Origin: Candidatus Wallbacteria bacterium
GTDB lineage: Bacteria; Muiribacteriota; JAQTZZ01
Length of the DNA stretch: 64,000 bases
Reading direction: 5' to 3'
Assembly: GCA_028687545.1 (NCBI GenBank)
Contig: JAQTZZ010000002.1
Span: forward strand, 74,087 to 138,086
Shown here piece by piece: positions 8,859 to 50,456 of the stretch. Made by a program: the position numbers and the translations under genes. Below the pieces are notes generated by a model. It did not search any database. It was not told the origin of the DNA and saw only the letters and a list, made by a program, of their open reading frames with translations. Numbering within the stretch: position 1 is the stretch's first letter; each line of letters opens with the position of its first letter.

Positions 8859-8911
8859 TTGAACAGCTCCGAATTTTTTTAGTAATTATAACTAAATTCA
8901 GTTAAAAGAAA

Positions 8912-8941
8912 AAGGGACTGTCTTTTGGACAGCCCCTTTTG
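8912..8941 (-). terminator. Rho-independent terminator downstream of the lipoprotein gene
   Basis: On the minus strand, an imperfect hairpin GGGGCTGTC-loop-GACAGTCCC is followed by a T-run, located 18 to 47 bp after the stop at 8959. Confidence 0.5.
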
Positions 8942-8958
8942 ACTTGCGATTCAGGAGA

Positions 8959-13214: not shown

Positions 13215-16200
13215 TCACTCATGATTGTATTCGATTCTGGTCTTCTGTCTCTTCAGCAGTTCGTCCATCAGTTTGGTGTCCAGGATCCAGAAAGGCACCA
13301 GGATCGCCCTGGTATTGTTGGACTTGTCTGTGACAGAGATCTTGAGCAGTTCAGGTTCAAGCGGCAGTTGCTCGAAATCAAGGCGTGTGCTTTCCTTGAA
13401 CTGGGTGAAGAAGATGGCATGCTTATGGCCTGTGTTGTCTGTCATGATCGGGATATTCTCAGTCGGGAGATTGACCCAGGCCCCGTCCGGATCGGTAACG
13501 CCAGGCGTTTTCTTGACTTCGATCTTCACATTACCGGCGAAAGTCACAGGGAATACTCCATTGTGTCCCTCGATCAGGTTGTGGGAGATGAAAGGTGCAT
13601 TTTCAATACAATCGACATTGTCGCGGGCTTTGACTTCAAAAGCCACTCTCATGTCCTCGTCAATGCCTAGCACATTCGGCTTATTCGGAGTCAGGTCGCC
13701 AATGTACTGGCCGAAATCGAAAAACTCCGCTTTCATGTAGTTGTTGCCTGGCATCGGCTGATCCACGGCATCGAGGGAATACACATTCCTGTCGATGAAA
13801 TAGTCGAAGATGTCACGTGGCTTATCGACAGTCTCGTCATTCCCTTCCACCAGCCTGGGCTCATTTTTCCCGTCGCCTGTGACTATGATCCGGATCTTTC
13901 CGCGCTCGCTGGTGACGCTGTTGAGCGGATTCAGGCCTGTTCCGCCCCATTCCGTATTATCCACAAGGGCAGTCAGGCTGGGAGTGGTGGAATTGTCGAT
14001 TTTAATGCCGTTCATGCCCTCGTCCACGAATCCATATCTGGGATCCAGAAAGATGTCGTCCCTGTCATCGTCATTCACCTGATACTTGATCACCCTGCTC
14101 AGTTTGGGTATCACGACAGTGAATGACAGTTCAGGCGGGTCATTGTCGTGCACCATCAGCTTGGCAGCGTATTTCCAGGGGGCATTGGCATCGTCGCCTG
14201 CAGTTTCAGGCGGAATGATCGGAGTGCCGTTGGAATTGAGATAATTGCCCTTGCCGTCTGTGCCGTAAACATACCAGTAAAGGTAACTGGCATAGTTTTC
14301 CGGCAAAGGACCAACAGTTCTCTTTGGATTGTAAAGAAAGAGGAATCTGTGCATGTATTTCTGAAGTCCGCCTGTTTTCCCAGGCTGACTTACATGGTAG
14401 TAACTGGAATCATCAGGCGGATTATCCACTGAGCCGATAATACGGGTAAAATCGTCATCCAGCTTGCCGTCAACGTTCAGGTCTACCAGAGAACCTTCGG
14501 GTATCTGGACGCTCATGTCCAACTGGCTCTGGTAATCAGTGTAAACCGAGTCCACAGTGCGGTCCTGCAGCTGATCGAAACGCCTGTTCCCTGAGTTGGC
14601 GGTCGGGTTTTCGATCTGGACTCTGAGCTTGAAATCATCGGGCTTCAGCGCCACATTGGGATTGTTGTCCAGGACCACATACTGGATTTCCCTTGGGAAG
14701 AGGTCGGCTGTGGTGCCGCCGTCCGCGTAATCGTCAGTGACGTAATAATAAAGCGCAGGTCCTTCTTTATCCACGACTTCGATCTGATACCCGAAATCCT
14801 TGGAACCCGGGGTCCCGGTATCAATATCGTGATAGCTGGTATGCCTTGGCGTATCGCAGGTCAGGTCATAGTAATTAAACTTTGGGGGCACTACGTCCGG
14901 GACCTGGTCGCGGGGTTCCCATTTCACGCATGGGTAATCGAAATCCAGCCAGAGGTAATAGCAGGCGAATTTGGGATCAGGTGCGCCGGACAGAGGCATC
15001 ACAAATTTATACAGATTCTGCTGCGTCGTGAGATTCAGCTTGACTTTGAACACATGCCTGTCCGCAAAGTTCGGAGGATTCCAGGTGTCCCAGGCCACTG
15101 TCTCATCCAGAGGCCCGTCAGTGTTGTTCCTGTATTCCACCACTGTGTCGTCTGACAAATCTCCTTTTTCGAACATGGTCTGTGTCCAGCGGTAAATGGG
15201 GGTGCCTGAGCTGTTGTCGAAGATGAATGCACCTACCCACCACTGGTACTTGATCTCGCCCCAGTCCTTTTTCCTGTCGAGATGGGAGTTGCCTGCGCCA
15301 GGGTCGAGCTGCGATGTGCCGAAGATCCCGATCCCGTTATCATTGCTGACAGGAACATCAATCCCGTTATAGGGATAGTCCTCCAGAGTGGTCTTCTGGT
15401 CGCTGTTGATGTCAACTGATCCGCCTGGGACCAGGTCGCCCGGGTTGCCTGTCAGACAGGCGGCCTTATCATTGACGTCAGTGGCCAGAGAAGGTTTGTA
15501 GTTGTTGGGTTTAAGCCCGTCGCCTTTGTAGTTCCAGACGCCCACTCCGTCATAACTGTCCACCAGGGAAGTGGATCCGGCATCATGCAGATGGAACTGG
15601 TAATACTTGCCCCACTGCACATAGAATGTGGCGTAAATCGGGACTCCGGTATCCTCGTCCACCTGCTGCGGGGCATGGATGTTGACCTGGTGGATGTAAC
15701 CCGGGGTAGGAGCGTTTTCATTGCCCACATGTATCACATGCTCTGCGATGAAATTCATGTCTGAATTCTTCCAGGCAGCCGGAGGAGTTGATGGCGCATA
15801 TCCGCCCGGGAGGAAGCATTTCGCGTCTCTCCACTCGAACGGGCAGGAGCTGGAAGTGGCCATGGCGTAACCAAGAGATTTGCGCTGGTCGATGAAAGAG
15901 GGGAATTTCATTGTCTCATAATTGTAGCGCTGATATACGGCCAGAACCTGGACTTTGTAAATGCCGCGGTCTCTGAAGAGAATCTTGAATCCCTTGCGCT
16001 CGATCTGAGCCGCACCATTCACCATGTATAGATAATTGTCAGGCTCATTGGTAGCTGAGACGTCGATCTTGACGCCCTGTCCGGCACTGGTGAGCACATT
16101 CTGGGGCTGCCCGTCGATCGGAGGATTGACAAACGGATCGACTTTTTCGCCTGTGATTTTATTGCCGAGAGTGGCATTGGGCATCCAGAATTCATACAGT

Positions 16201-17530
16201 ACATTGCTGCTCTGGAGCACATCGATCACCCGGATATAATAGATCAGGCCTGGGCCTGCGTTCGTGCCCTCGATCAGTCCGATCGGGTAGCCGCCTGTGA
16301 ATCCGTTGGAACTCAAAGGCTGATGTGTCGAAAGCGTTGATTCGCCGTAATTGTTGTTTTTATTCAGGTAGTCACCGGCAAAAGAAGGCGGGTTTTCAAT
16401 GTAAAATGTATAAGCCAGGTCTTCTTTCAGATAGTCATCATTGGGTTTAGCCGGATCTTTGGGAGGCAATGGATTCGTGTTGTTGGAATCAGGATCCATG
16501 CAGACAAAATCCACATGTGAGATGTCATCGCCCGCAATCGGAGGGCCGGCTATGTTTACGACTGCAATGTCTGTATCTATTGCTCTCACATCCACCATGC
16601 TTGTGCTCATGTCGAGCACTGCGGGAGAACTGAAAAACGGGTCCCAGACCAGAGTGTTTCCCGCGTACCAGCCATAATCCTGGCGCTTCCAGATGTTCCC
16701 GCCCAGAAAGATCTTGAACATCAGGTAATGGTCTGCGATGTTGTTTTCCTTGACCCTCCAGACACTGTAATACCAGCCGTCGGAAAAGACGGAAGTCCAT
16801 CTTTTGGTCAGCTTGGCCTGCTGTGGAGTGGGAGGCGGTTCGCCAGGCTGTGGAACATATGTGTAATCATTGATGTCTTTGACCTGGTCCGGCGGCCACA
16901 AGGTATTGGGATCCCATCCCTGGGGTTTCAATTCCTGGGTTTTTATCCCATAGTAAACATTGCCCTGTCCGTCTGCAGCGATGGCTTCGATCGTACCCGG
17001 CACATTGTTCGGGATGGAAAAAGTCACTGAAGTGCCTGCTGTCAGTCCGATCATCTCGGTTCGATTGAAGGACCTGAGGTCAGGCTGCAGTTCGTACTTG
17101 ATGCCGCCCAGGCCGTCCCACTGGTCTGCCACGCACATGTCTATGGCATCAGAGTAATAAAACCAGTCTTCCTGGCTGTTCTTGGTGGCAGCTCCGATGG
17201 AGGAAGTATGGTCAGGCAGATTCACCTGCTGAGCGCTGCCGTCCATGGCAGTAGGCTTCGCGTATGACAGGCCGTCTACATCGGTTTCCACAGTTTCCAT
17301 CTGTCCGATTTTCAAGATCTCATCCGGAACAGTGGTATAGAAATATCTGCGGCCAGTGCAGCTCACTGCTATGTCCATCCTGCCTGTGGGAGAAACGTTG
17401 GGCTGGTCATTATAGTTTTCACCAGGAGGAGAGTCTCCGCAGGATGCGCCCAGAGCCTGATAGGTATAGTTGCACTGGAACAGATGGAAAACCTGCTCGA
17501 ATGCGTTGAACTGACTGGAATAAGGATCCC
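13181..17530. repeat. High-identity duplicated tract copy A (~97-98% nt identity to 24402..28770)
   Basis: Direct by-eye comparison of the first ~400 nt after the terminator shows only scattered substitutions. Protein identity is above 90% across the corresponding translation. Confidence 0.6.
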
Positions 17531-18299
17531 AGGAACCTGCGACAGCGATCGGCCTGTGAGGGTCATTGTAATAATCGTCCCAGAAAGTGAGGTCCCGCTC
17601 CTCGTAATTCTTGATCAGGGAATGCTGGCCACGTCCGTAATGGCCCCAGCCAATGTTATCGTTGCAGTGCATGAAAGTGAAGTAACCGTTGGGGAGCTGG
17701 GCAAAGCAGTTGGTGTCTATGTCGCAGCCATTGGGCACCAGGAGATTGCCGAAATCGTCTTTCCAGAAATTGGTGTTGAAATCAAAGGCCGAGCCCCATT
17801 GTCCCCCGCTTACCCACCATCTCCAGCCGTGGACATTGAATCCGTGTCCGAAATGGTTGTTCCAGTTGTTGGGATAAGAGCAATAGATCCATTGCCCGTT
17901 GATACCCATCACTACCCTGAAAAAAGTCCGGTTGACCAGAGTGGGGACATCGAATCCTTCAGCGGTCAGCCTGGCCAGCTCCGCAGGGGTGACGCGGGGC
18001 GGCCCGAAAGCAGTAGTCTTGTTGCAGAGGAGGTATACGTTGCTGAACATGTCGACAGCGATCGCCTTGCCTGAATCGCCCGGCATGAAGAGCCGTTTGG
18101 CCTTGGGGTCATTTCCCTGGTCCACAATAATGGTCTCTGTGCTCTCATGGAAAGGACCGTAAACTCCCTTGTTGATTCCATCGCCGACCAGAACATAGAC
18201 ATCGCCGTTGCGCTTGTAGATATCCTTATTGGAATATGTCGCTACTGCAAAAACCGCACTGCCTGCCATTAAGAGCAACAACAGAAAGATTTTCCTCAT
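13215..18299 (-). CDS. Giant secreted protein, paralog A (1694 aa), unknown function. A hypervariable cassette near the N-terminus sits in an otherwise conserved body.
   Basis: The reading frame is intact and a signal peptide MRKIFLLLLLMAGSAVFAVA is present. I recognised no known catalytic or sorting motif. It is about 90%+ identical over its C-terminal ~1400 aa to the ORF at 24434..29638. Confidence 0.7.
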   Translation of the reverse strand: MRKIFLLLLLMAGSAVFAVATYSNKDIYKRNGDVYVLVGDGINKGVYGPFHESTETIIVDQGNDPKAKRLFMPGDSGKAIAVDMFSNVYLLCNKTTAFGPPRVTPAELARLTAEGFDVPTLVNRTFFRVVMGINGQWIYCSYPNNWNNHFGHGFNVHGWRWWVSGGQWGSAFDFNTNFWKDDFGNLLVPNGCDIDTNCFAQLPNGYFTFMHCNDNIGWGHYGRGQHSLIKNYEERDLTFWDDYYNDPHRPIAVAGSWDPYSSQFNAFEQVFHLFQCNYTYQALGASCGDSPPGENYNDQPNVSPTGRMDIAVSCTGRRYFYTTVPDEILKIGQMETVETDVDGLSYAKPTAMDGSAQQVNLPDHTSSIGAATKNSQEDWFYYSDAIDMCVADQWDGLGGIKYELQPDLRSFNRTEMIGLTAGTSVTFSIPNNVPGTIEAIAADGQGNVYYGIKTQELKPQGWDPNTLWPPDQVKDINDYTYVPQPGEPPPTPQQAKLTKRWTSVFSDGWYYSVWRVKENNIADHYLMFKIFLGGNIWKRQDYGWYAGNTLVWDPFFSSPAVLDMSTSMVDVRAIDTDIAVVNIAGPPIAGDDISHVDFVCMDPDSNNTNPLPPKDPAKPNDDYLKEDLAYTFYIENPPSFAGDYLNKNNNYGESTLSTHQPLSSNGFTGGYPIGLIEGTNAGPGLIYYIRVIDVLQSSNVLYEFWMPNATLGNKITGEKVDPFVNPPIDGQPQNVLTSAGQGVKIDVSATNEPDNYLYMVNGAAQIERKGFKILFRDRGIYKVQVLAVYQRYNYETMKFPSFIDQRKSLGYAMATSSSCPFEWRDAKCFLPGGYAPSTPPAAWKNSDMNFIAEHVIHVGNENAPTPGYIHQVNIHAPQQVDEDTGVPIYATFYVQWGKYYQFHLHDAGSTSLVDSYDGVGVWNYKGDGLKPNNYKPSLATDVNDKAACLTGNPGDLVPGGSVDINSDQKTTLEDYPYNGIDVPVSNDNGIGIFGTSQLDPGAGNSHLDRKKDWGEIKYQWWVGAFIFDNSSGTPIYRWTQTMFEKGDLSDDTVVEYRNNTDGPLDETVAWDTWNPPNFADRHVFKVKLNLTTQQNLYKFVMPLSGAPDPKFACYYLWLDFDYPCVKWEPRDQVPDVVPPKFNYYDLTCDTPRHTSYHDIDTGTPGSKDFGYQIEVVDKEGPALYYYVTDDYADGGTTADLFPREIQYVVLDNNPNVALKPDDFKLRVQIENPTANSGNRRFDQLQDRTVDSVYTDYQSQLDMSVQIPEGSLVDLNVDGKLDDDFTRIIGSVDNPPDDSSYYHVSQPGKTGGLQKYMHRFLFLYNPKRTVGPLPENYASYLYWYVYGTDGKGNYLNSNGTPIIPPETAGDDANAPWKYAAKLMVHDNDPPELSFTVVIPKLSRVIKYQVNDDDRDDIFLDPRYGFVDEGMNGIKIDNSTTPSLTALVDNTEWGGTGLNPLNSVTSERGKIRIIVTGDGKNEPRLVEGNDETVDKPRDIFDYFIDRNVYSLDAVDQPMPGNNYMKAEFFDFGQYIGDLTPNKPNVLGIDEDMRVAFEVKARDNVDCIENAPFISHNLIEGHNGVFPVTFAGNVKIEVKKTPGVTDPDGAWVNLPTENIPIMTDNTGHKHAIFFTQFKESTRLDFEQLPLEPELLKISVTDKSNNTRAILVPFWILDTKLMDELLKRQKTRIEYNHE

Positions 18300-18403: not shown

Positions 18404-19366
18404 TCAGGACTTGAGATTATCCTTCAGGTACTGCAGGACTGCAGCCTTGAATTTGGGATTTATTTCACTCGCTCCGATCAGGGATTCAACAACTTCGTAA
18501 GTCAGGTCCTGGCTTTCGCTCTGTATGAATTCGGAAAAGTCGGGCCTGGCCATTGGAGAACTTTTTTTCGCGATCAGTTCCGAAAGATAAGACATGGTAA
18601 AGGTCTTGATCTTGTCTTCAGGGCTCATTTTCTGGCCTTCTGCCAAATTAGGCTCTCCCACAGACATCATGTTCACCCGCTCGTAATTGGCAGTGAGTTT
18701 ACCGGAATCTGAAGATCCGGATGGGAGCAGATTCTCATAAACCCCGCTGTTCAGGACCAGCTTGATCCCTTTTTTATCTGCAACTGTTTTCAGGGCAGTC
18801 TTGATTTCAGCAAGAATCCTGGAAGTTAACTGGGCAGCTTCCCCGGTGGTGTAGAATTCCACTGAAGATTCCGACTGCTTTAACTGCAATTGCTCACTGT
18901 TCAGTTTCAGAGTTTCCAGTTCCAGTGAATCCAGCTTGTCCTGATATGGCTTCATGGCACGCTCAGCCTCGTCGTGAAACTGGAGATTCAGCTTGGCAAT
19001 GTCCACTTTGCCGGTCATTTTTTTCTGCTGCTCTTCAAAGAGGCTGCTTTTCATGCCGAGAATCCTGCTGCAGGTCTGGTTTTTCTCAGCTGCCAGATCA
19101 TTCAGCCTCTTGGCAATTTCTTCATTCCGCGTCTTATTCCTGGCTTTCAGCCTGTCTTTTTCGACGCTGCGGGTTTTCCTGGCTTCTTCAATCGCACTGA
19201 CAGTCAGTTTTCCCTCTACCGGACGCAGAAAAGTCCCTGCTTCAGGATAATAATAAAGAATTGTCATGGGATGATAATAAAAAGCCAGGTTCAGATTGAT
19301 GGTTCCGACAGGTTCAGCGAGCAGGGTTGAACACACCATCAACAATGTCAGGACTGAATATTTCAT
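18404..19366 (-). CDS. Skp/OmpH-like periplasmic chaperone paralog (320 aa, coiled-coil rich), upstream of giant gene A
   Basis: It has a signal peptide. A post-signal motif EPVGTINLNLAFYYHP resembles the Skp N-terminal beta-strand. A long K/E/Q-rich coiled coil follows. The segment VADKKGIKLVLNS resembles the Skp C-terminal AKKGY..ILD segment. The 4-bp ATGA overlap with the upstream ORF suggests translational coupling. Confidence 0.45.
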   Translation of the reverse strand: MKYSVLTLLMVCSTLLAEPVGTINLNLAFYYHPMTILYYYPEAGTFLRPVEGKLTVSAIEEARKTRSVEKDRLKARNKTRNEEIAKRLNDLAAEKNQTCSRILGMKSSLFEEQQKKMTGKVDIAKLNLQFHDEAERAMKPYQDKLDSLELETLKLNSEQLQLKQSESSVEFYTTGEAAQLTSRILAEIKTALKTVADKKGIKLVLNSGVYENLLPSGSSDSGKLTANYERVNMMSVGEPNLAEGQKMSPEDKIKTFTMSYLSELIAKKSSPMARPDFSEFIQSESQDLTYEVVESLIGASEINPKFKAAVLQYLKDNLKS

Positions 19367-20235
19367 CTTGCTTCCTCCTTATTAAGGGCATTAACGAGCA
19401 TTTCCTGCAGTTCAGAAGCGAATTTATATTTTTCAAAAATTCCCTGCAAAATCTCCAGGGAATAATCAGCTCCACCATAGACGATGAATTTATCCCTGTC
19501 AGTCAAGCTGTTTAACCTGAATTTAAATCCCTGGCTCATGAAATATGAAAATCTCTGCCTTTCCTGTTCAGTAAAACTGTCTTTGTCCAGGGCGCACAGA
19601 TCGTTGATATGGTAAATCACAGAAGCGGCAGAATTGATACTTCCGGGATAAAATATGATCCTCTCGACCTGATGCGCCTTTTTAACCTTGCTGATCCCTT
19701 CATTAATATCCGTCCAGATCTGTTTTCTGATTTTTTTCTGCTCTTCCTGCGTCGCTGAATATGCTGAAAAACTCTTCATGATTTTATCGATTTTTCCGCC
19801 TACTTCAATCAGTTTCTTCAAAAGTACACTCTGCAGGGCAAGATATTTTTTCTCTTGTTCTGAACTTGGTTTTCCTGTTTCAGTTTTTCTGTATTGATTT
19901 ACAAGGTCTGATCTCTGAATTTCGATCCCCTGTTTCTCCTTGATCAGGGTATTAAGCTCTTTTTTCAGTTCATTGTCTCCCTGCTCGGAATTTGCGATGA
20001 AATCCCTGCGGACATAGGCAAGGCTGGCCTGGCTGAATTCGTTGTTTTTCAGCGATTTGAGCGAAATGAACCCGTCAGTGTCAGGCAGATAGAAGAAAAC
20101 TGTGTAAGGGTGGAGCCTGTAAAGCAAAGCCAGATCCACACTGCCGAAATCAGCACAGGCTGGAAAGATGACAGCCAAAACAGCGGCGAAAAAGAGCCTT
20201 TTCATATTTTCCCTTTCCGACTGAGTCATGCTCAT
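19363..20235 (-). CDS. Second Skp/OmpH-like chaperone paralog (290 aa), first gene of the operon
   Basis: It has a signal peptide. The motif DFGSVDLALLYRLHPY parallels the N-terminal motif of the neighbouring paralog. A coiled-coil region and a KKAHQVERIIFYPGS segment follow. Confidence 0.4.
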   Translation of the reverse strand: MSMTQSERENMKRLFFAAVLAVIFPACADFGSVDLALLYRLHPYTVFFYLPDTDGFISLKSLKNNEFSQASLAYVRRDFIANSEQGDNELKKELNTLIKEKQGIEIQRSDLVNQYRKTETGKPSSEQEKKYLALQSVLLKKLIEVGGKIDKIMKSFSAYSATQEEQKKIRKQIWTDINEGISKVKKAHQVERIIFYPGSINSAASVIYHINDLCALDKDSFTEQERQRFSYFMSQGFKFRLNSLTDRDKFIVYGGADYSLEILQGIFEKYKFASELQEMLVNALNKEEAR

Positions 20236-20309: not shown

Positions 20310-20338
20310 ATTCTATCCGCGATTCTATGATCTGTCAA
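20310..20338 (-). promoter_or_regulatory. Sigma70-type promoter (TTGACA-N17-TAGAAT) for the Skp-like/Skp-like/giant operon A
   Basis: On the minus strand, TTGACA (plus-strand 20333..20338) is followed by a 17-nt spacer GATCATAGAATCGCGGA and then TAGAAT (plus-strand 20310..20315). The whole ~65 bp element is conserved upstream of operon B at 31640..31707. Confidence 0.5.
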
Positions 20339-20437: not shown

Positions 20438-21700
20438 ATGTTATGTTTGAAATGCAGGAGATCTCCAGTGCCTGGTAAGGTCAAAAATCTTTTTCTGCTG
20501 CTCACTTTTGTGACTGTTCTGCATTTTATCGTGTTTTCCTGGCTAATGAATGTCGTCCCCCTGCTGAGCGGGATTTCCGGTTATGACTGGCCGACTATGC
20601 TGCTCCTGCTTCTCGGAAATCTCTGGTTTGTTTTCTGCGGCTTGAAGTATCAGGAAAACCAGGAAGACTTCCGCTGGAGCCTGTATCTTTCCGGCTACCT
20701 GCTCCTGCTGGTTTTTCTCTTCCTGCTGAATCGAAGACTTCTGTTGTTCCTGATGGGGGTCTTTCTCTATTCCGGGATGTATCACAACAGGAATCGGACA
20801 GTTTATCTCTTCATTTTCCTGTTTTCTCTCATTGCATTCAGCGCTTACTGGGTTTCAGGATGTCTGCTCTTATCTTTCATCTACGCTGTTTTAAGCGGGC
20901 TATGGGAACGCCTGAGCAGCGGGTTTGAAAAAGTGCTGGCCTTGTCGGGCGGACTGATTCTGCTGCTGGTGATTTTCCCGCTGCTTAACCTGCTTTTCCA
21001 GTATCAGCCCCAGACCCTGATCAATGCCTGCAGTCCGGAAATATGGAATGCCATGCAACTGAGTGCAGTCACAGCATTGATCTCGACTCTGATCATTCTA
21101 GTACTGGGTGTCCCGCTTGCCTATATCATGGCCAGGAACGATTTCAGGCTGAAAGCCGCAGTCGATGCTTTGATCGACCTGCCGATCATGGTTCCTCAGA
21201 CAGCGGCAGGAATCGCCATTCTGGTCCTGGTCGGCCCTAAAACACCTCTGGGAGACTTTTTAGCTCAGCAATTCGGAATGTCTTTTGCCGGAACAGCCAT
21301 CGGCATTATCTGCTGCCAGATCTTTGTCAGTTTCCCATTTCTGGTACGGTCTGCGATCAATGCCTTTGAAGCGGTGGACGCGAAATTCGAAAATGCCAGC
21401 CGCTCGCTGGGTGCATCTGCAGCCCTGACTTTTTTCCGGATCACCCTGCCACTTGCCGCGCCTGGGATTTTCAACGGCTGCATCCTGAGTTTTTCCAGGG
21501 CTCTCTCCGAAGCAGGCAGCCTGATGATCGTAGCTTACAGGCCGAGCACGATCCCGATCATGATCGATGACACATTCAATCAGTTCGGCATGCGGGAGGC
21601 TGCCCCGATCACAGTAGTGTTTGTGGGCATCTGCTTCTGGGGGTTCATTTCCCTGAAGTGGCTTTATGAAAACCAGAAGAGAAGGCTGAAACAAGCTTGA
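20438..21700 (+). CDS. ABC transporter permease, molybdate/tungstate/sulfate (CysTW/ModB/WtpB) type, with an extra N-terminal membrane domain of about 170 aa
   Basis: The C-terminal half carries the BPD-transporter fold and EAA-loop region ENASRSLGASAALTFFRITLPLAAPGI. The N-terminal 170 aa are hydrophobic. The true start codon is uncertain. Confidence 0.7.
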   Translation: MLCLKCRRSPVPGKVKNLFLLLTFVTVLHFIVFSWLMNVVPLLSGISGYDWPTMLLLLLGNLWFVFCGLKYQENQEDFRWSLYLSGYLLLLVFLFLLNRRLLLFLMGVFLYSGMYHNRNRTVYLFIFLFSLIAFSAYWVSGCLLLSFIYAVLSGLWERLSSGFEKVLALSGGLILLLVIFPLLNLLFQYQPQTLINACSPEIWNAMQLSAVTALISTLIILVLGVPLAYIMARNDFRLKAAVDALIDLPIMVPQTAAGIAILVLVGPKTPLGDFLAQQFGMSFAGTAIGIICCQIFVSFPFLVRSAINAFEAVDAKFENASRSLGASAALTFFRITLPLAAPGIFNGCILSFSRALSEAGSLMIVAYRPSTIPIMIDDTFNQFGMREAAPITVVFVGICFWGFISLKWLYENQKRRLKQA

Positions 21701-21716
21701 TGTTACTGGAGGAAAT

Positions 21717-22661
21717 TTGAACAAATTCTTCGACGAACCGTTTCTGCCGGTGATGGGAAGCTGGTTCGACGGTTTTCCGTTAGCCCTGATCTCCCTGCTT
21801 CTGATAGCAGGGATGATATTCATGATAAATCTGCGGAATGCATGGCTGCAGCGGGCGAGGCGGGCCGTCCAGACCATCTCCCTGCTGGTTTTTGCCCTTT
21901 TCGTGTATCAATGCCTCTGCCTGATGCGGCTTTTCATGTTCGGGCTCGGCGAAATCGGAAAAAACGACCTGGTTTCATTCTCCCAGCTGAGCCTGTTTGC
22001 CGTAGTCGGAGGATTCTCGTTTTTTGCGGGACGCATTTTCTGCGGCTGGGTCTGCCCGCTTGGATTTCTGCAGGAAATAGTGAATTCAATCTCCCCGGTG
22101 AAAGGAAAAGCTGCTAAACTGATCCTCCTAACAGCATTGTTCTGCACAGCCCTGGTCACCATGCTCAGAACCTTGCCGGCTAATGAATTTGCAGTGGAAT
22201 ATGTCACTGCTGTCTTCGCCTTTCTGATGATGATCAGCCTTTTCCTGCTCCTGATCAGCCCGGCCCTGGAGCAGGCTCTGATGAACTTCCGTTATGTACC
22301 GATGTTCGTATATAGTGCGCTGAGCCTCTTGGGTATTTATTTCAGTGACGCCTGGTGCTCGCTCTATGGCTTTGAGGCAGACACCTCCTCACTGATCTCG
22401 CTCTGCATTGTCCTGTCAGCCTCGTTTATCGTGGCCACTCCCTGGTGCAGATTCATGTGCCCGACAGGTCTGTTTCTGGCTCTTATCGGAAAAGACGCTT
22501 TCTACAGGCTTAAGCTGGGCCATCTGCCTCCGATACACGAACCATGCAGGCAAGCCTGTCCGTCAGGCGCGATCAGTGAGCAGGGTATAGACTGCCTGCT
22601 CTGCATAAGCTGTGGAACCTGCAAGGAAACCTGCGGTTCGAAGTACGGTTTTTTCAAGTAA
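21717..22661 (+). CDS. NapH/MauN/FixG-family 4Fe-4S polyferredoxin-like integral membrane protein
   Basis: The diagnostic CxxCP motifs FCGWVCPLGFLQE and WCRFMCPTGLF are present. The C-terminal tail CRQACPSGAI...CLLCISCGTCKETC is a ferredoxin-type cluster. Multiple TM helices are predicted. Confidence 0.7.
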   Translation: MNKFFDEPFLPVMGSWFDGFPLALISLLLIAGMIFMINLRNAWLQRARRAVQTISLLVFALFVYQCLCLMRLFMFGLGEIGKNDLVSFSQLSLFAVVGGFSFFAGRIFCGWVCPLGFLQEIVNSISPVKGKAAKLILLTALFCTALVTMLRTLPANEFAVEYVTAVFAFLMMISLFLLLISPALEQALMNFRYVPMFVYSALSLLGIYFSDAWCSLYGFEADTSSLISLCIVLSASFIVATPWCRFMCPTGLFLALIGKDAFYRLKLGHLPPIHEPCRQACPSGAISEQGIDCLLCISCGTCKETCGSKYGFFK

Positions 22662-22672
22662 TAAATCTGGCT

Positions 22673-23605
22673 CTATTTTAAGATTTCAAGCGGGACGTTT
22701 TTTGATCCGCCAGGTGCAGGATCAAAGAAATTCTTCTCAACCAGGTCTGAGCGTGACAGGAGCATCCTTCCAAATTTCAATGCTGTTCCGCGGTCAGGGG
22801 CATCATTCGGAATTGTGAACGCATACCTGATAGGCCCGCCTGTCAGGGAGACCGTATTTTTACCGCTGCCTGTCACTTCAGTGGTAACCTGGGAATAGAA
22901 CTGGGCCTCCATAGTGCTTCCCATATTGATCCTGTCAGGCAGCCGGATGAACTTGAGATGATACTTCTTGGCGGATGATTCATAGATGAAGGCATAATCC
23001 AGCGAATAGTTCTGAAGCCTGGGAACAAGCTGAGACTCAGTCTGGCAGACATTGTCAGGTCGGCAATTGGCTTTAAGCATAACAGCGATGCTTCTGCCTC
23101 CCAGTTTCTCCCGATAGACTATGTCTGCAAGCTCCCAGCAGAACAGGGTGCGGTATCCAGCAGGTTCAAGGTTGGGATCGACACGCCCGAATTTCACATC
23201 CGGCCTGGCAAGGATTTCATACCAGTTGTCAGCTGTCAGCTCTGTTCCATATTGAGAGTGCTCTCCGTATGCGACAGTCATCCTGCTTCCTGCAAAATCA
23301 GCATACCAGTCTGTGAATTCAGGGATCAGCAGTCGTTCAATCACCACATAATCCGCCACTGCGATGACGTCAGCTCTGCGTTTCAGTTCAGTAATCTTCC
23401 GGCAGGCGGCAAAACTGCCTGAAGGCTCAAGCACTATCTCCACACCCGGTTCTCCTGCCTCGAACTCAGCTTTCATGTCCTTCATCAGAGCGGTCAGGCT
23501 GCTGGCATGAAAGACAACCAGTTTTTTCTTTTCTCCGCATCCCTGGCAGAGAGTGAAAAAAGCCAGAGTCAGCAGAAGCAGCAGGCGTTTTCCCGAAAGG
23601 TTCAT
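22673..23605 (-). CDS. Periplasmic substrate-binding protein of a molybdate/tungstate (ModA/WtpA/TupA-like) ABC transporter
   Basis: It has a signal peptide. The N-terminus LVVFHASSLTALMKDMKAEFE...GVEIVLEPSGSFAACRKI is typical of ModA/WtpA-type PBPs. It is a paralog (~55% aa identity) of 31772..32716. Confidence 0.65.
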   Translation of the reverse strand: MNLSGKRLLLLLTLAFFTLCQGCGEKKKLVVFHASSLTALMKDMKAEFEAGEPGVEIVLEPSGSFAACRKITELKRRADVIAVADYVVIERLLIPEFTDWYADFAGSRMTVAYGEHSQYGTELTADNWYEILARPDVKFGRVDPNLEPAGYRTLFCWELADIVYREKLGGRSIAVMLKANCRPDNVCQTESQLVPRLQNYSLDYAFIYESSAKKYHLKFIRLPDRINMGSTMEAQFYSQVTTEVTGSGKNTVSLTGGPIRYAFTIPNDAPDRGTALKFGRMLLSRSDLVEKNFFDPAPGGSKNVPLEILK

Positions 23606-23707
23606 AATTACCCCTTGAAATCATTATCAGTATGACATTTTAGCCTCTGCCATATCAAGTAGTAATTTGGAGGTGTTTTCCTGTATAATTGATTTCACAA
23701 GGCCAAC

Positions 23708-24403
23708 ATGACGATGAAGATATTTCTGACCCTGTTTTTTTTTCTGCTTTTTTCTGGAACTTCGAATTCATGTTCAGCCTATAATTTCAGAAACTCGACC
23801 TTCAACGACATCAAGCGAGCCTCAGCAAAATCGTTTTTCAAGATCATTTCCAGCATCAATGGATTCGAAAAATGCGGCACAGCCGAGCTTGAGTCCCTGA
23901 AGTCCCGCTGGAGCGATGTCTCAGTATCCTGGACCCTTTTCCAGACCAAAGTGGAAAACTGGCTCAGGCTGATCCCTGATGAAACTTCCGTGAAAGACTG
24001 GAATGCCGCGTTGGGAGAATTTCAGCGGATTATCGGAAAAATACACGGAGAAATTGCAGCAGGAAGCGGGGAAACAGCGCTCAGCGAGATGACTGGACTC
24101 AAGATCGATCTGCTGCTTTTTTTTCATTTCAATCCCCTGGATACATCCAGGGATGCGGCAAAAACCGGGGACCGCGGTACTATGATCATAGTTTTTTCGG
24201 ATGTATCCTGGTTTAAAGATGAACTGCCGCCTGAACTTGTGTTGTTTCAAAAGAAAATCGGGGAACTGTACAAAAATTTTGATGAGCCGCACAGGAAATC
24301 CTTCCTGGAATGGAAAGAAGATCACAGAATTGTTCTGAAAAAAGTGCTGGCTGATTATTTCGAACATCACAGCTGGCTGAGACGGTCAGGGGAAAATCCT
24401 TAA
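23708..24403 (+). CDS. Small secreted protein of unknown function (231 aa), paralog of 32713..33375
   Basis: It has a signal peptide. The conserved core LFQTKVENWLRLIPDE is shared with the copy-B paralog. Confidence 0.45.
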   Translation: MTMKIFLTLFFFLLFSGTSNSCSAYNFRNSTFNDIKRASAKSFFKIISSINGFEKCGTAELESLKSRWSDVSVSWTLFQTKVENWLRLIPDETSVKDWNAALGEFQRIIGKIHGEIAAGSGETALSEMTGLKIDLLLFFHFNPLDTSRDAAKTGDRGTMIIVFSDVSWFKDELPPELVLFQKKIGELYKNFDEPHRKSFLEWKEDHRIVLKKVLADYFEHHSWLRRSGENP

Positions 24404-24434
24404 AAAGGGCACGGTTTCCCGTGCCCTTTTGGTT
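24402..24434. terminator. Bidirectional rho-independent terminator between the small secreted protein gene (+) and giant gene B (-). It is the same sequence as 13181..13214.
   Basis: The sequence AAAAAGGGCACGG-TTTC-CCGTGCCCTTTT lies between two convergent stop codons. Confidence 0.8.
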
Positions 24435-27400
24435 CACTCATGATTGTATTCGATTCTGGTCTTCTGTCTCTTCAGCAGTTCGTCCATCAGTTTGGTGTCC
24501 AGGATCCAGAAAGGCACCAGGATCGCCCTGGTATTGTTGGATTTGTCTGTGACAGAGATCTTGAGCAGTTCAGGTTCCAGCGGCAGTTGCTCGAAATCAA
24601 GGCGTGTGCTTTCCTTGAACTGCGTGAAGAAGATGGCATGCTTATGGCCTGTGTTGTCTGTCATGATCGGGATATTCTCAGTCGGGAGATTGATCCAGGC
24701 CCCGTCCGGATCGGTAACGCCAGGTGTTTTCTTGACTTCGATCTTCACATTACCGGCGAATGTCACAGGGAACGCTCCATTGTGTCCCTCGATCAGGTTG
24801 TGGGAGATGAATGGCTGGTTCTCGATGCAGTCCACATTATCCCTGGCCTTGACTTCGAATGCCACTCTCATGTCCTCGTCTATGCCTAGCACATTCGGTT
24901 TGTCAGGAGTCTTGTCTCCTATGTACTGACTGAAATCGAAAAACTCCGCTTTCATGTAGTTGTTACCCGGCATCGGCTGATCAATTGCATCGAGAGAATA
25001 TACATTCTTGTCGATAAAGTAATCGAAGATGTTCAGGGGTTTGTCGACAGTCTCGTCATTCCCATCAACCAGCCTGGGCTCATTTTTCCCGTCGCCTGTG
25101 ACTATGATCCGGATTTTTCCGCGCTCGCTGGTGCCGTTGTTAAGCGGATTCAGTCCGGTCCCGCCCCATTCCGTATTATCCACAAGGGCAGTCAGGCCTG
25201 GAGTGGTGGAGTCGTCGATTCTGGTGCCGCCCATGCCTTCATCCCCGAATCCATATTTCGGTTCCAGGAAGATGTCATCCCTGTCGTCATCCGCCACCTG
25301 ATACTTGATCACTCTGTTCAGTTTGGGAATTACGACAGTGAATGACAGTTCAGGCGGGTCATTGTCGTGTACCAGCAGCTTGGCAGCATACTTCCATGGG
25401 GCAATCGGATCTACTGCCTCACCTGCAGCTTCCGGAGGTATGATCGGAGTGCCGTTGGAATTGAGGTAATTGCCCTTGCCGTCTGTGCCGTAGACATACC
25501 AGTAAAGGTAACTGGCATAGTTTTCAGGCAGCGGACCCACGGTGTCTTTTGGGTTGTATAGATAGAGGAATCTATGCATGTATCTCATGAGTCCGCCCAA
25601 TTTTCCGGGCTGGCTCACATGGTAGTAACTGGAATCATCAGGAGGGGTATCCACTGACCCGATCAGAAGTGCGAAATCATCATCTATCTTGCTGTCACCG
25701 CTCAGGTCTACCAGGGAACCTTCAGGGATCTGGACGCTGGTATCAAGCTGGCTCTGGTAATCAGTGTAAACCGAGTCCACTGTGCGGTCCTGCAGCTGGT
25801 CGAAACGCCTGTTCCCTGAGTTGGCGGTCGGGTTTTCGATCTGGACCCTGAGCTTGAAATCATTGGGCTTCAGTGCCACATTGGGATTGTTGTCCAGGAC
25901 CACATACTGGATTTCCCTTGGGAAGAGGTCGGCTGTGGTGCCGCCGTCCGCGTAATCATCAGTGACGTAATAATATAGAGCCGGGCCCTCTGTATCCACG
26001 ACTTCGATCTGATACCCGAAATCCTTGGAATTCGGGGAGGCTGTGTCTATGTCATGATAGCTGGTATGCCTCTTGGTATCGCAAGTCAGGTCATAGTAAT
26101 TATACTTTGGAGGTACGACATCAGGAACCTGGTCGCGGGGTTCCCATTTCACGCACGGGTAATCGAAATCCAGCCAGAGATAATAGCAGGCGAATTTGGA
26201 ATCAGGTGCGCCGGACAGAGGCATCACAAATTCAAACAGCTTCTGCTGGGGTGTGAGATTCAGCTTGACTTTGAATACTTGCCTGTCCGCGAAGTTCGGA
26301 GGATTCCAGGTGTCCCAGGGCACTGTCTCGTCCAGCGGCCCATCTGTATTGTTCCTGTATTCCACCACTGTGTCGTCTGACAAATCTCCTTTTTTGATCA
26401 TGGTCTGTGTCCAGCGATAGATGGGCGTACCTGAACTGTTATCAAAGATGAAGGCACCCACATACCAGTGGTATTGGATTTCGCCCCAGTCCTTTTTCCT
26501 GTCTAGATGGGAGTTACCTGCGCCAGGGTCGAGCTGAGATGTGCCGAAGATTCCGGTGCCATTATCGTTGCTGACAGGAACGTCAATCCCATTATAGGGA
26601 TAGTCCTCCAGAGTGGATTTTCCGTCACTGTTGATGTCAGCGCTTCCGCCTGCGACCAGGTCGCCCGGGCTGCCGGTCAGACAGGCAGCCTTGTCGTTGA
26701 TGTCAGTGTTCACAGAAGGTTTGTAATTGTTGGGCTTCCGGCCGTCTCCGCCTGGCGATGGCTTGTCGTAGTTCCAGATGCCCACACCATCATAACTGTC
26801 CACTTTGGATGTGATCGATGCGTCTCCTAAATGGTACTGGAAATACTTGCCCCACTGCACATAAAATGTGGCGTAAATAGGGACTCCGGTATCCTCGTCC
26901 ACCTGCTGCGGGGCATGGATATTGACCTGATGGATGTAACCCGGGGTAGGCGCATTTTCGTTGCCAACATGCACCACGTGTTCTGCGATGAAGTTCATAT
27001 TGGATTTTTTCCAGGCATCCGGAGGATTTGACGGAGTGTAACCTCCGGGCAGGAAGCAGGCAGCGCTTCTCCAGTCAATTGTGGAAAAACAGGAGGTGGC
27101 CATGGCATAACCGAGGGAAACGCGCTCATCAATGAAAGAAGGATATTTCATGGTTTCATAATTATAGCGCTGATATACTCCCATCACCTGGATTTTGTAA
27201 ATGCCGCGGTCCCTGAAGAGAATCTTGAATCCCTTGCGCTCGATCTGGGGCTGGCCGCTGACCAGATACAAATAGTTGTCAGGCTCGTTGGTTACCTTGA
27301 TGTCAATCTTCACGCCCTGGCCGGCATTGGTCAGCACATTCTGGGGCTGGCCGTCGATCACAGGAGTGACAGTCGGATCTACTTTCTCACCTGTGACTTT

Positions 27401-28770
27401 GTTGCCGCTCGTGGCATTTGGCATCCAGAACTCATAAAGCACATTGTTGCTCTGCAGCACATCGATCACCCGCACATAGTAAATCAGACCAGGCCCTGCA
27501 TTCGTGCCCTCGATCAGTCCGATCGGGTAGCCGCCTGTGAATCCGTTGAAATTCACCGGCTGATGGTTCTTGAGTGTCTGTTCTCCGTAATTGTTGTTTT
27601 TGTTCAGCCGGTCGCCTGCGAAGGAAGGCGGGTTTTCAATGTAATAATCGCACCATTGGTCTTCAGGAACATAGTCGTCATTGGGTTTGGTCGGATCCTT
27701 GGGCTGGATCGGATTCATGCTTCCGTCAGTGAGCGCGAAATCCACATGTGATATGTCGTCGCCTGCGATCGGAGGTCCTGCGATATTGACCACAGCAATA
27801 TCCAAATCCAGTTTTCTAACATCGATCCCTGAACTCAGGTCCAAGACTGCTCCATGACTGAACTGAGGATCCCAGACCACCTGGTTTCCTGCCATCCAGC
27901 CATAATCCTGGCGCAGGTATAAATTGCCACCGATGAAAATCTTGAACATCAGGTAATGGTCTGCAATATTGTTTTCCTTGACCCTGTATACACGGTAATA
28001 CCAGCCGTCAGACAGTACGGAGACCCATCTTTTTGTCAGAGCTGCCTGTGCAGGTGTGGGGGGAGGATCACCGGGCAGCGGAACATAGGTGTAATCCTGC
28101 AAGTTCTTGATCTGATCAGGAGGCCAGGCAGTGTCCGGATTCCAGCCTGCAGGTTTCTGTTCCTGGGTCCTGATTCCATAATAAATATTCCCGTTCCCGT
28201 CGGCTGCGATGGTTTCGATTGTACCTGGAATTGTGGCAGGAATTGAGAAATTCATCGTATTGTCCTCAGTGGGGCTTCCTGAGAGGCCTCCGCTGGGGTC
28301 GATCTGGTAACCGCCGATCATCTTGGAGCGATTGAAAGAGCGGAGGTCAGGCAATAGTTCGTATTTGATGCCGCCCAGCCCGTCCCACTGGTCGCAGACA
28401 GCCATTTGAGGGGATTCCGAATAATAAAACCAGTCAGAGCTGCGGTCCTTGGTAGCTGCGCCGATGGAGATCGTTCTGTCAGGAAGGTTGCACTGGACGA
28501 AAGCGGCAGTCATGGCAGTAGGCTTCATATAGCCAATTCCCTGGGCATCCGTTTCCACTGTTTCCATCTGGCCGATCTTCAGGATTTCGTCTGGAATCGT
28601 GGTATAGAAATACCGGCGGCCTGTGCAGCTCACTGCGATGTCCATGTGGCCTGTGGGGCTGACGATCGGCTGTTTGTCATAGTTTTCTCCCGGAGGGGAA
28701 TCGCCGCAGGATGCTCCCAATGCCTCATAAGAGTAATTACATTGAAACAGGTGAAAAACCTGTTCAAATG
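24402..28770. repeat. High-identity duplicated tract copy B
   Basis: See the matching tract at 13181..17530. Confidence 0.6.
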
Positions 28771-29747: not shown

Positions 29748-30716
29748 TCACTTCGCTTTCAAACTATCCTTCAGGTATTGGATTACAGCAGCCTTGAATT
29801 TAGGGCTGATCTCGCTGTTATCAAGGAGCGCGGATACCACATCAACAGTAAGATCATGGCTCTCACCCAGAATGAATTCGTTTAAATCCTCTCTTTTGAA
29901 GGGTAATCTTTTTTCGCTGAAACCGGAGATGAAAGACTTGATGAAGATTTTTGCTCCTTCGTCAGGTCCCGCTTTATCGTCTTTATGAGTCTTCGGTTCT
30001 CCGCTCACGACCATGTTCATCCTGTCATAATCCCCACCCGCGTTTCCGGGGGATGTGGTCTTTTCTGAGCTGAATTCATTATCATAAAAACTGCTGTTCA
30101 GAATCAGCTGGATTCCGCTCTTCCCTGCAACTTTTTTCAGAGTATCCTTGATTTCGGCCATTATCTGGTCGATCTCCCTGGAAGTTTCAGCAGGAGAATA
30201 AAACTCCACCAGAAATTCGGAGTTTATCAATTTTTCCTGCTCGGATTTAAGTTCATCAGATTGAATTTCAATGGAATCCAGCTTCTTCTGATAAGGGCTC
30301 AAGGCCCGTTCCATTTCCTCATGCTGTTTCAGGGTGTTGGTTAATTCCGAAGGATTGGAGCTGGCAGCTTTCTGCTGCTGCTCCCAGATACTGCTCTGTT
30401 CTCCCAGGATTCTGATGCTGAGCCGGTTTTTTTCCTCATCCAGAGCATTGAGTTTTTTCTTTATTTCTTCCTGTTTCGATTTGTTTTTGGCTCTGATTCT
30501 CTCCTGTTCCAGTTTCCGGTTTTTTAAAGTGTCCGCTATCACCGAATCCGTGAGTCTGCCCTCGATCGGCCGCATGAAAGTGTGGAACTCAGGATAATAA
30601 TAAAGCAGCACTTGAGGATGATAATAAAACGCCAGGTTAAGATCGACAGTGCCGACCGGCTCGGTCAAGGCAGCAAAGATGGCAGCCAGTAAAAAAATGA
30701 TGGAAAGGTATTTCAT
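29748..30716 (-). CDS. Skp/OmpH-like chaperone paralog (322 aa), upstream of giant gene B
   Basis: It is about 50% identical to 18404..19366 and carries the same EPVGTVDLNLAFYYHP motif. A coiled coil is present, as is the segment VAGKSGIQLILNS. Confidence 0.45.
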   Translation of the reverse strand: MKYLSIIFLLAAIFAALTEPVGTVDLNLAFYYHPQVLLYYYPEFHTFMRPIEGRLTDSVIADTLKNRKLEQERIRAKNKSKQEEIKKKLNALDEEKNRLSIRILGEQSSIWEQQQKAASSNPSELTNTLKQHEEMERALSPYQKKLDSIEIQSDELKSEQEKLINSEFLVEFYSPAETSREIDQIMAEIKDTLKKVAGKSGIQLILNSSFYDNEFSSEKTTSPGNAGGDYDRMNMVVSGEPKTHKDDKAGPDEGAKIFIKSFISGFSEKRLPFKREDLNEFILGESHDLTVDVVSALLDNSEISPKFKAAVIQYLKDSLKAK

Positions 30717-31671: not shown

Positions 31672-31700
31672 ATTTTATCCGCGATCCTGCTATCTGTCAA
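31672..31700 (-). promoter_or_regulatory. Sigma70-type promoter (TTGACA-N17-TAAAAT) for operon B
   Basis: On the minus strand, TTGACA (plus-strand 31695..31700) is followed by a 17-nt spacer GATAGCAGGATCGCGGA and then TAAAAT (plus-strand 31672..31677). The flanking sequence is conserved with copy A. Confidence 0.5.
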
Positions 31701-34588: not shown

Positions 34589-34604
34589 CGGAGAAAAATC
34601 CCAG

Positions 34605-41767: not shown

Positions 41768-41845
41768 GTCAGCACCGCTTTCAGACAACTTTATTAGTTT
41801 TCTAAACTCTGATAAAATGTCATAAAAAATTAATCCGGAAAAAAT

Positions 41846-50441: not shown

Positions 50442-50456
50442 CCTCTGCCCCGTATG

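Follow-up and report, generated by a model that had tools for sequence, protein, structure and literature searches.

A remotely Skp-related protein pair encoded upstream of a giant orphan protein in Candidatus Wallbacteria, a candidate two-subunit clamp

Skp (OmpH) is usually viewed as a generalist that serves outer membrane proteins in the form of a small homotrimer. Its monomer is characterised by a four-stranded association domain with a long alpha-helical tentacle between strands 2 and 3, and its resemblance to prefoldin has been noted (PMC9820271). Skp also acts on secreted clients other than outer membrane proteins (PMC9638971), and the neighbouring paralogs skpA and skpB are known to have specialised roles, recent work on SkpA showing that the Skp scaffold can be repurposed (PMC10994853). 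Here, we describe a three-gene unit, designated X1-X2-giant, which is present in two copies (A and B) in a Candidatus Wallbacteria contig, within the stretch of 64,000 nucleotides analysed (hereafter, the window). The relevant features are as follows.

19363..20205, minus strand: X1A, shorter Skp-like protomer, 280 aa from its likely start (the longest ORF, to 20235, has 290 aa)
18404..19366, minus strand: X2A, longer Skp-like protomer, ORF of 320 aa
13215..18299, minus strand: giant A, presumed client or partner, ORF of 1694 aa
30713..31570, minus strand: X1B, shorter Skp-like protomer of copy B, ORF of 285 aa
29748..30716, minus strand: X2B, longer Skp-like protomer of copy B, ORF of 322 aa
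24434..29638, minus strand: giant B, ORF of 1734 aa
50457..50981, minus strand: canonical housekeeping Skp, the reference, outside the unit, 174 aa (Pfam OmpH, E 5.9e-26)
20310..20338, minus strand: sigma-70-like promoter TTGACA-17-TAGAAT upstream of X1A, 11 of 12 consensus matches
31672..31700, minus strand: promoter-like element TTGACA-17-TAAAAT upstream of X1B, read from the sequence, near-identical and homologous to the copy A element

The four Skp-like ORFs that an initial annotation had placed upstream of the giant genes are all present, to the nucleotide, and so is the ATGA overlap described for each pair, with an AGGAGG-type ribosome-binding site just upstream in both copies. X2 is separated from the giant gene by 104 nt in copy A and 109 nt in copy B, and neither gap has a terminator-like site on the coding strand. 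X1A probably starts at the second ATG, at 20205 (MKRLFF), rather than at 20235, since a protein beginning there is in register with X1B, and a GGAAAGG element precedes both starts; the two X1 proteins are 46% identical from M11 onward. X1 and X2 are real genes and not chance ORFs, as judged from the 46–49% identity of the A and B paralogs (E 1e-104 and 2e-86) and from the orthologs present in other assemblies. The 174-aa skp, which the initial annotation described as canonical and placed in a bamA-skp-lpxD cluster, encodes a true OmpH protein and sits in a tamB-omp85-skp-lpxD-lpxC/fabZ cluster; it is this gene, and not X1 or X2, that occupies the usual bamA-skp-lpxD position.

The N-terminal strand motif G(S/T)(V/I)(D/N)L....HP, one of the features by which the likeness to Skp was originally noticed, occurs in all four X proteins of the window, and H32 and P33 are near-invariant across the wider X family. 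A KKG..L(V/I)L-like segment, also attributed to all four, is clear in the two 320-aa proteins X2A and X2B (KKGIKLVL and KSGIQLIL) and degenerate in the 285-aa X1 proteins (KKAHQVERIIF and KKSCKLEKLIF). The X proteins are indeed enlarged, by a factor of 1.6–1.85 over the local Skp rather than twofold as first estimated. By inspection, the N-termini of all four resemble Sec signal peptides of the AxA type, in that a basic stretch leads into a hydrophobic core and an AxA-like site immediately precedes strand 1; in X1A the putative signal peptide ends in PACA, directly followed by DFGSVDL. The sequence FPAC in X1A and X1B and a weak LPAM_1 match had raised the possibility that X1 is a lipoprotein, which we rejected because neither X1C nor the orthologs at loci L004 and L005 have this Cys, and because the site fits an AxA-type cut by signal peptidase I. 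Charge was uninformative with respect to a basic chaperone matched to an acidic client, as the X proteins are near neutral (pI 5.4–8.4), like the local Skp.

In native form, X2A (16.1 bits, E 0.014) and X2B (14.2 bits, E 0.051) both score below the gathering threshold of Pfam OmpH (PF03938; 32.4 bits), and X1A and X1B have no direct match to it. The kinship with OmpH proposed in the initial annotation is therefore not significant for any single X protein of the window in Pfam, an outcome that, read literally, goes against the proposal by the annotation's own criterion; it was recovered, as remote homology, from OmpH matches at the family level and from profile-profile comparison (hhalign). A word-indexed homolog search with X2A returned only the query and missed its 48% identical paralog, so that an exhaustive profile search was needed, which gave an X family of 47 representatives. 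OmpH was matched at E≤0.01 by 22 of the 46 family members scanned (best E 3.8e-9), and P0013, a tandem fusion, exceeds the gathering score (37.3 vs 32.4); none of 10 further giant-linked members matched OmpH at E≤0.01. The family matches always span the last helix and the KKG..LVL strand, and never the hairpin. The family consensus 'sfivvGGvDLTadVlsall' was aligned with the C-terminus of the window Skp, 'NAVYFGGEDLTDEVISIINK'.

After removal of an internal insertion, the OmpH alignments extend to the end of the profile and the scores rise, from 16 to 21.4 bits for X2A minus residues 208–278 (profile positions 24–141), from 14 to 26 bits for X2B (E 1.3e-5, positions 12–141) and from 25 to 36.4 bits, above the cut-off, for the paralog X2C, a gain that is partly guided, as the insertion boundaries were picked with the Skp motif in view. 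The hhalign comparison of the X2 family with bona fide Skp gave a probability of 92.8% (E 4e-7), or 97.6% (E 2.9e-12) without the insertion of 50–100 aa, and in the greedy alignment co-linearity of the two begins at the signal peptide and strand 1. For X1 against Skp the values were 8.5% in native form and 61% (E 8e-5) without the insertion, and for X1 against the X2 family 99.75% (E 2.6e-27) over the full length; at the profile level, the homology of X1 to Skp thus holds only indirectly, via the X2 family. One distant family member bears the NCBI name 'OmpH family outer membrane protein'. A PDB sequence-profile search with the family was uninformative, with generic coiled-coil proteins only and no Skp; as to HlyD-type adaptor domains, there was no Pfam HlyD match, and the sole match, TIGR01843, was at chance level (E 2.6). 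These sequence comparisons support X1 and X2 as very divergent, remote relatives of Skp/OmpH that form a new, insertion-bearing and often paired subfamily. Our literature searches found no description of the X family, and a scan of GTDB genomes with close X2 relatives recovered one further Wallbacteria MAG fragment only.

The AlphaFold model of X2A based on the 46-sequence alignment (pLDDT 88.5, pTM 0.80) superseded a run with a two-sequence alignment (pLDDT 56.6). It has four body strands (residues 20–23, 45–47, 203–206 and 285–287) and an antiparallel helical hairpin of ~90 Å (56–117/123–167), which is how the 'long coiled coil' of the initial annotation is modelled. The predicted monomer shows the arrangement of the Skp fold, a four-stranded association domain with a helical tentacle between strands 2 and 3. 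When the model was compared with 350,542 PDB chains by Foldseek, the best four matches were Skp (1sg2, 1u2m) and the T9SS protein SkpA (8gl8), at non-significant E-values of 0.056–0.14; the match list also includes long-hairpin proteins, e.g. EmrA.

Giant A has a signal peptide, is acidic (pI 4.7) and rich in D, G, N and P, and belongs to an orphan family found in Wallbacteria and related uncultured bacteria. It is 79% identical to giant B, the identity increasing from 40–70% at the N-terminus to 90–100% at the C-terminus; among distant homologs, it is the first ~100 residues that are best conserved (32–37% vs ~24% overall). The giant has no match in Pfam, NCBIfam or PDB sequences; it lacks CxxCH motifs and does not end in the aromatic residue that typifies outer membrane barrels. 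Its proposed transit to the outer membrane or cell surface was not supported; the searches yielded no targeting domain, of whatever kind.

The linkage between X genes and giants is tight and phylogenetically broad. One or two X genes, or a tandem fusion, lie directly upstream of the giant in 15 of 16 assessable loci, and an X gene immediately precedes a giant gene of the same orientation in the two window copies and at L002, L003, L007, L015, L011, L018–L021 and L023–L026. Giants with an upstream X gene may be only 22–25% identical, and X and giant overlap by start and stop at L003 and L011. In an all-against-all clustering of neighbours, only X and giant co-occurred broadly, and no translocon, T9SS, exporter or other envelope-machine genes accompanied the unit. 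The X1/X2 pairs are conserved across loci; a second, independently conserved a/b pair is found at L021, L024 and L025, and the tandem fusion at L007. There are also X1/X2 pairs without an adjacent giant (L004, L005/6), a solitary family member (L012) and one giant lineage without upstream X (L001/L016). A neighbouring SBP/permease/Fer4_5 module, considered as a possible part of the unit, was discarded, as it is present in the window and loosely at L026 and is not conserved elsewhere. The initial view of the pair as 'private' to the giant is well supported by this conserved synteny. As the arrangement recurs across giant loci, it suggests that X1 and X2 serve a single client as its dedicated chaperone or assembly set, and the conserved pairs, together with the tandem fusion, suggest two protomer types rather than a homotrimeric jellyfish.

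We consider it somewhat better than even, with a probability of roughly 55%, that X1 and X2 form a Skp-derived hetero-oligomeric clamp serving the giant protein. X1, X2 and giant would constitute an operon under the sigma-70-type promoter upstream of X1, and all three products would be exported by Sec. X1 and X2 would each retain the 'body', a four-stranded association domain, and the 'tentacle', a helical hairpin, to which would be added a longer tentacle with helices of ~62 and ~45 residues reaching roughly 90 Å, an additional HP..YY.P segment following strand 1, a mostly helical insertion of 50–100 aa between body strands 3 and 4, and an extra C-terminal helix. Translational coupling would provide X1 and X2 in roughly 1:1 amounts, and the two would join via their body strands into a clamp that captures all or part of the acidic giant (188 kDa) on its emergence into the periplasm, and holds it soluble and assembly-competent until folding or hand-over. 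The size of such a client, which far exceeds any known Skp cavity (PMC9820271), counts against the clamp, as do the X1/X2 pairs without an adjacent giant, the solitary family member and the giant lineage that lacks upstream X. A more specific form, which we regard as possible and rather speculative, is an obligate, even-numbered, prefoldin-like hetero-clamp of Skp type, with longer tentacles and an extra layer built from the insertion, that would act as a private platform for a single orphan envelope protein of ~190 kDa and would have evolved more than once, since both separate pairs and a tandem fusion occur.

The same size argument, that the giant is too large for encapsulation (PMC9820271), favours a different role, in which the Skp-like pair permanently grips a segment of the giant as part of a mature periplasmic or envelope complex or of an export apparatus. 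There is a precedent in SkpA, a top structural match of X2A, which structures and immobilises the N-terminus of SprA as a scaffold and is not a biogenesis factor for outer membrane proteins (PMC10994853). The best conserved ~100 N-terminal residues of the giant would be the candidate for the gripped segment, and the conserved insertion and extra C-terminal helix of the X model could be docking surfaces. However, no translocon or envelope-machine genes co-occur with the unit, some X pairs have no giant, and between copies A and B the X proteins have diverged much faster than the giants (46–49% vs 79% identity), which is unusual for a tight partner; we consider a permanent structural partnership rather unlikely. 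The pair could also be general-purpose, extra Skp paralogs that help in the biogenesis of outer membrane proteins or under envelope stress, with the adjacency to the giant being incidental. Bacteria can carry several Skp paralogs (PMC10994853), and the solitary and giant-less family members would fit such a role, yet the position directly upstream of giants as divergent as 22–25%, at 15 of 16 loci and in some with stop/start overlaps, speaks against it, as does the housekeeping Skp already in place at the omp85-skp-lpxD site. We consider a generalist function very improbable.

The X proteins might also be unrelated to Skp by descent and be secreted helical-hairpin proteins of separate origin, e.g. 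adaptors or scaffolds, whose similarity to OmpH stems from composition and convergence, as would accord with the sub-threshold or absent native Pfam matches, the subgroup with 0 of 10 OmpH matches, the generic coiled coils in the PDB profile search and the Foldseek E-values above 0.05 with EmrA-like hairpins in the list. It should be noted, however, that the similarity lies outside the hairpin, in strand 3, in the GGxDLTxxV motif of strand 4 and in the last helix, and is co-linear with Skp, that hhalign gave 92.8–97.6%, that the four-strand body topology was predicted independently, and that HlyD and other adaptor families were not matched. We therefore regard an origin outside Skp as improbable, and the dedicated Skp-derived clamp as the preferred reading. 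An enlarged, insertion-split, two-protomer family of Skp descent, bound genetically to one giant orphan protein, would extend the picture of a repurposed Skp scaffold and would offer a natural system for studying how chaperones of the cavity type can be scaled up for very large clients. It would also give a first functional handle on an unannotated family of ~1,700-residue proteins, which may be periplasm-exposed and may need dedicated helpers. If true, an obligate X1/X2 clamp would be the first client-specific, two-subunit Skp system.

Among described systems, Skp/OmpH itself (PF03938; E. coli Skp, 1SG2 and 1U2M) shares with the X proteins Sec export, with strand 1 right after the signal peptide (putative in X, by inspection), the four-strand body with a helical-hairpin tentacle between strands 2 and 3 (predicted in X), and the motifs 'helix + KKG..LVL strand' and 'GG.DLT..V..L'. 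Unlike Skp, the X proteins are 1.6–1.85 times longer, with a longer tentacle, an insertion of 50–100 aa that splits the body domain, the HP..YY.P segment and a C-terminal helix; they fall below the Pfam threshold, occur as two protomer types or tandem fusions as opposed to one homotrimer-forming gene, and are linked to one giant gene, away from the bamA-skp-lpxD context. SkpA/SkpB of Bacteroidota, with SkpA in the T9SS Extended Translocon (8GL8; PMC10994853), are likewise two adjacent Skp paralogs in one operon with a C-terminal extension in comparison with E. coli Skp, and their role is a specialised one, distinct from the biogenesis of outer membrane proteins, in which one defined partner segment is bound, as X1/X2 may also do; the SkpA structure is also among the top, non-significant fold matches of X2A. 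SkpA differs in being an ordinary-size homotrimer within a known secretion machine, whereas no T9SS or other machine genes are linked to X, and in the large internal insertion that the X proteins carry. The archaeal and eukaryotic prefoldin, an alpha/beta hetero-hexamer, works in the cytosol and is not detectably related in sequence to the X proteins; as a functional analogy only, it is a jellyfish-shaped holdase in which two types of protomer form a beta-barrel body bearing coiled-coil tentacles, similar to the hetero-oligomer that X1 and X2 would form.

Two copies (A and B) of a three-gene unit lie in the window, each encoding a pair of Skp-like proteins (X1, the shorter, and X2, the longer) and, downstream, a secreted orphan protein of ~1,700 residues (the giant):

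13215-18299 (-), giant A, 1694 aa, 104 nt past X2A
18404-19366 (-), X2A, 320-aa ORF
19363-20235 (-), X1A, 290 aa as longest ORF
upstream of X1A, strong sigma-70-like promoter, TTGACA-17-TAGAAT, 11/12 matches
24434-29638 (-), giant B, 1734 aa, 109 nt past X2B
29748-30716 (-), X2B, 322-aa ORF
30713-31570 (-), X1B, 285-aa ORF
upstream of X1B, near-identical promoter element

The four X genes of the initial annotation correspond exactly to ORFs in the sequence, and the ATGA overlap of the X1 stop with the X2 start, which it had described, is present in both copies with an AGGAGG-type ribosome-binding site immediately 5' of it. No terminator-like site was found between X2 and the giant on the gene strand. 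The most likely start of X1A is 20205 (MKRLFF) rather than 20235; it is in register with the X1B start, and a GGAAAGG element lies upstream of both. Beside each unit, in divergent orientation, lies one copy of a module of four genes (20438-24403 and 31772-36882), which encode an SBP_bac_11 solute-binding protein, a BPD_transp_1 permease (411-420 aa), a Fer4_5 (NapH-like) membrane iron-sulfur protein and a secreted protein of 220-231 aa without family; the module copies are 44-55% identical with gene order rearranged, and copy B additionally carries a PQQ/BamB-like beta-propeller. Elsewhere in the window, positions 36980-45229 encode two large cytoplasmic signalling-type proteins, one of 1595 aa (HEAT, DUF4062, NACHT/STAND NTPase and TPR) and one of 1127 aa, in which an adenylate/guanylate cyclase is joined to many HEAT repeats. 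At 5811-11220, an M6 (immune inhibitor A-like) peptidase of 1015 aa adjoins a T/A/S-rich, lipoprotein-like protein of 753 aa that matches no family; short segments are similar between them (45% over 68 aa).

Between the copies, identity is 48-49% for X2, 46-47% for X1 and 79% for the giants, and a third X1-X2-giant unit lies on another contig, which encodes exactly a protein that NCBI annotates in the Candidatus Wallbacteria MAG from which the window comes (P0004, PHW04_06440). Along the giant gene pair, amino-acid identity is 40-70% over the first 700 codons and reaches 90-100% at the 3' end, and third-codon-position identity increases from ~0.5 to 0.98. This climb indicates that gene conversion or recombination homogenised the giant 3' halves; the X genes and giant 5' halves are anciently diverged between the copies.

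Homologues of the giant were collected by protein search with gene-context look-ups, by starting from X-family members, and by a metagenome scan with giant-derived patterns only, after which the flanks were scanned with an HMM. Of 16 distinct loci that contain both the giant N-terminus and upstream DNA, 15 (window A and B and, in other assemblies or contigs, L002, L003, L007, L015 (and L010), L011, L018-L021 and L023-L026) have an X-family gene as the immediate upstream neighbour of the giant, in the same orientation, with identities to the window's giants down to 22-25%. In L003 and L011 the stop codon of X and the start codon of the giant overlap. Only the L001/L016 lineage departs from the pattern, with an aldolase-like gene upstream of the giant. 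X1/X2 pairs also occur without an adjacent giant in L004 and L005/L006, where the downstream neighbour is LemA or a GT4 glycosyltransferase, and L012 holds a solitary family member. When all neighbouring ORFs were clustered all-against-all, X and the giant were the only ones to co-occur broadly, which is strong evidence that they are functionally coupled; the proposed tie of the X genes to the giant is well supported by this synteny.

The giant (188 kDa, pI 4.7) carries a signal peptide and has no match in Pfam, NCBIfam or PDB sequences. Its suggested transit to the outer membrane or cell surface gained no direct support: no targeting domain or barrel signature was found in it, nor any secretion genes linked to X-giant loci. 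In L026 the X gene is immediately preceded by a set of DsbD_2, DUF362(TAT) and Fer4 membrane-protein genes, an association that is not conserved at other loci. A GT4 glycosyltransferase recurs downstream where an X1/X2-type pair is present, after the giant in L002 (12075-13289), after the LemA gene in L004 (3082-3894) and directly after X2 in L005 (1849-3030), which might point to glycosylation of the giant, or to its loss from L004 and L005. In giant-less loci, a conserved 223-225 aa protein overlaps the X1 start (L004, 40-711; L006, 733-1410; 33% identity), with no family match and no homologue in the window.

The canonical skp (50457-50981) is a clear OmpH protein (Pfam E 5.9e-26) inside a tamB-omp85-skp-lpxD-lpxC/fabZ cluster. 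This outer-membrane biogenesis cluster (47195-56466, minus strand) encodes, besides canonical Skp and LpxD, TamB (1252 aa), a POTRA-containing Omp85 (559 aa), a 425-aa fusion of LpxC and FabZ, and a 241-aa protein whose YjbH-like match is weak. The X pairs had been proposed as enlarged Skp/OmpH-like chaperones private to the giant. Tested directly against Pfam OmpH (gathering cut-off 32.4 bits), the check named in the initial annotation, X2A (16.1 bits, E 0.014) and X2B (14.2 bits, E 0.051) fall below the cut-off, and X1A and X1B give no match at all; the Skp-like identity instead finds support in profile-profile comparison, for the X2 family itself and for X1 via X2. A word-indexed homologue search returned X2A as its own sole match, and an exhaustive HMMER search with an X2A/X2B profile retrieved 47 cluster representatives, mostly 315-400 aa. 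OmpH was matched at E<=0.01 in 22 of 46 family members aligned and scanned, the best (3.8e-9, clearing the gathering score) being a 690-aa tandem-fused member. These matches always span profile positions ~60-129 of 141, the last helix and 'KKG..LVL' strand, with the compositionally biased hairpin outside. As the conserved C-terminal motif of the family, 'ivvGGvDLTadVlsall', aligns with the C-terminus of the window Skp, 'AVYFGGEDLTDEVISIINK', we read the X family as Skp in which an insertion of 50-100 aa interrupts the body domain between strands 3 and 4. With the insertion deleted, OmpH alignments reach the profile end and scores rise to 21.4 bits for X2A (positions 24-141), 25.9 bits for X2B (12-141) and, over the cut-off, 36.4 bits for the paralog X2C, a gain that is partly guided since the deletion boundaries were set with the Skp motif already known; X1 proteins so treated still gave no match. 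By hhalign against an alignment of four true Skp, the X2 family scored 92.8% (E 4e-7) natively and 97.6% (E 2.9e-12) without insertion columns, the improvement again being partly guided; in a greedy alignment the two run co-linearly from signal peptide and strand 1 (IG.VDL..vF in the family, kIG.VD.ekVF in Skp) to the end.

By BLAST, similarity between X1 and X2 is confined to the N-terminus (E 1e-5); by hhalign, the families are unambiguous full-length homologues (99.75%, E 2.6e-27). Directly against Skp, the X1 family had no match (8.5%; 61% without its insertion). None of a further ten giant-linked members matched OmpH at E<=0.01, and so the Skp signal is real, but faint and patchy. X2 very probably belongs to the Skp superfamily by homology; X1 does so with slightly lower probability, as its assignment rests on X2 by transitivity.

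X1 orthologues always lie directly upstream of an X2 orthologue (window A and B, L002, L004, L005/6). A separate pair, neither member X1-type, is conserved in L021, L024 and L025, a matching a and b matching b across loci, and L007 carries a tandem fusion of two complete modules, 28% identical to one another. Further lineages carry just one X gene (L003, L015, L018, L019, L023, L026); L020 has a second family gene, divergent from the X-giant unit (3362-4465(-) and 4757-5878(+)). From the translational coupling and the L007 fusion, we infer that two distinct protomers would work together in approximately equal amounts in paired or fused lineages; a hetero-oligomer would fit better than a classical homotrimer.

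The best-supported reading, to which we give a probability of about 0.55, is that X1 and X2 are exported by Sec and form a Skp-derived two-subunit clamp, which would grip the giant, whole or in part, in the periplasm until it is folded or handed over. The main rival, by analogy with SkpA, is a lasting structural partner or scaffold for the giant: in the T9SS translocon, the SprA N-terminus owes its permanent structure to a Skp trimer, which serves as scaffold (PMC10994853). Conservation of the giant is highest over its first ~100 residues, and at 188 kDa the protein exceeds a Skp-type cavity, because large Skp clients already require two trimers (PMC9820271); both points favour the scaffold, which we consider unlikely. 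Set beside the co-linear alignment, a convergent likeness to Skp is improbable, and that the X proteins are general Skp paralogs, beside the giant only incidentally, is a shade more improbable still.

No description of the X family was found in a literature search, Pfam does not cover it, and NCBI annotates the window X proteins, including X2A, as hypothetical, with one distant member named 'OmpH family outer membrane protein'. So far found in Wallbacteria and related uncultured bacteria, the X proteins are best filed as Skp/OmpH-superfamily members that are enlarged, insertion-split, often paired and tied to one orphan giant. For X2A, the AlphaFold model from two sequences only was poor (pLDDT 56.6); with a 46-sequence alignment (pLDDT 88.5, pTM 0.80) the prediction was:

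20-23, strand, then two short helices
45-47, strand
56-117 and 123-167, helical hairpin
174-198, helix
203-206, strand
208-280, insertion, partly helical, lower confidence
285-287, strand, then two C-terminal helices

The model agrees with Skp as described in the literature, where four strands and two short helices make up the association domain and the tentacle forms a second domain (PMC9820271), and the predicted 62-residue helix of the model, at ~90 Å, would exceed the length of the Skp tentacle.
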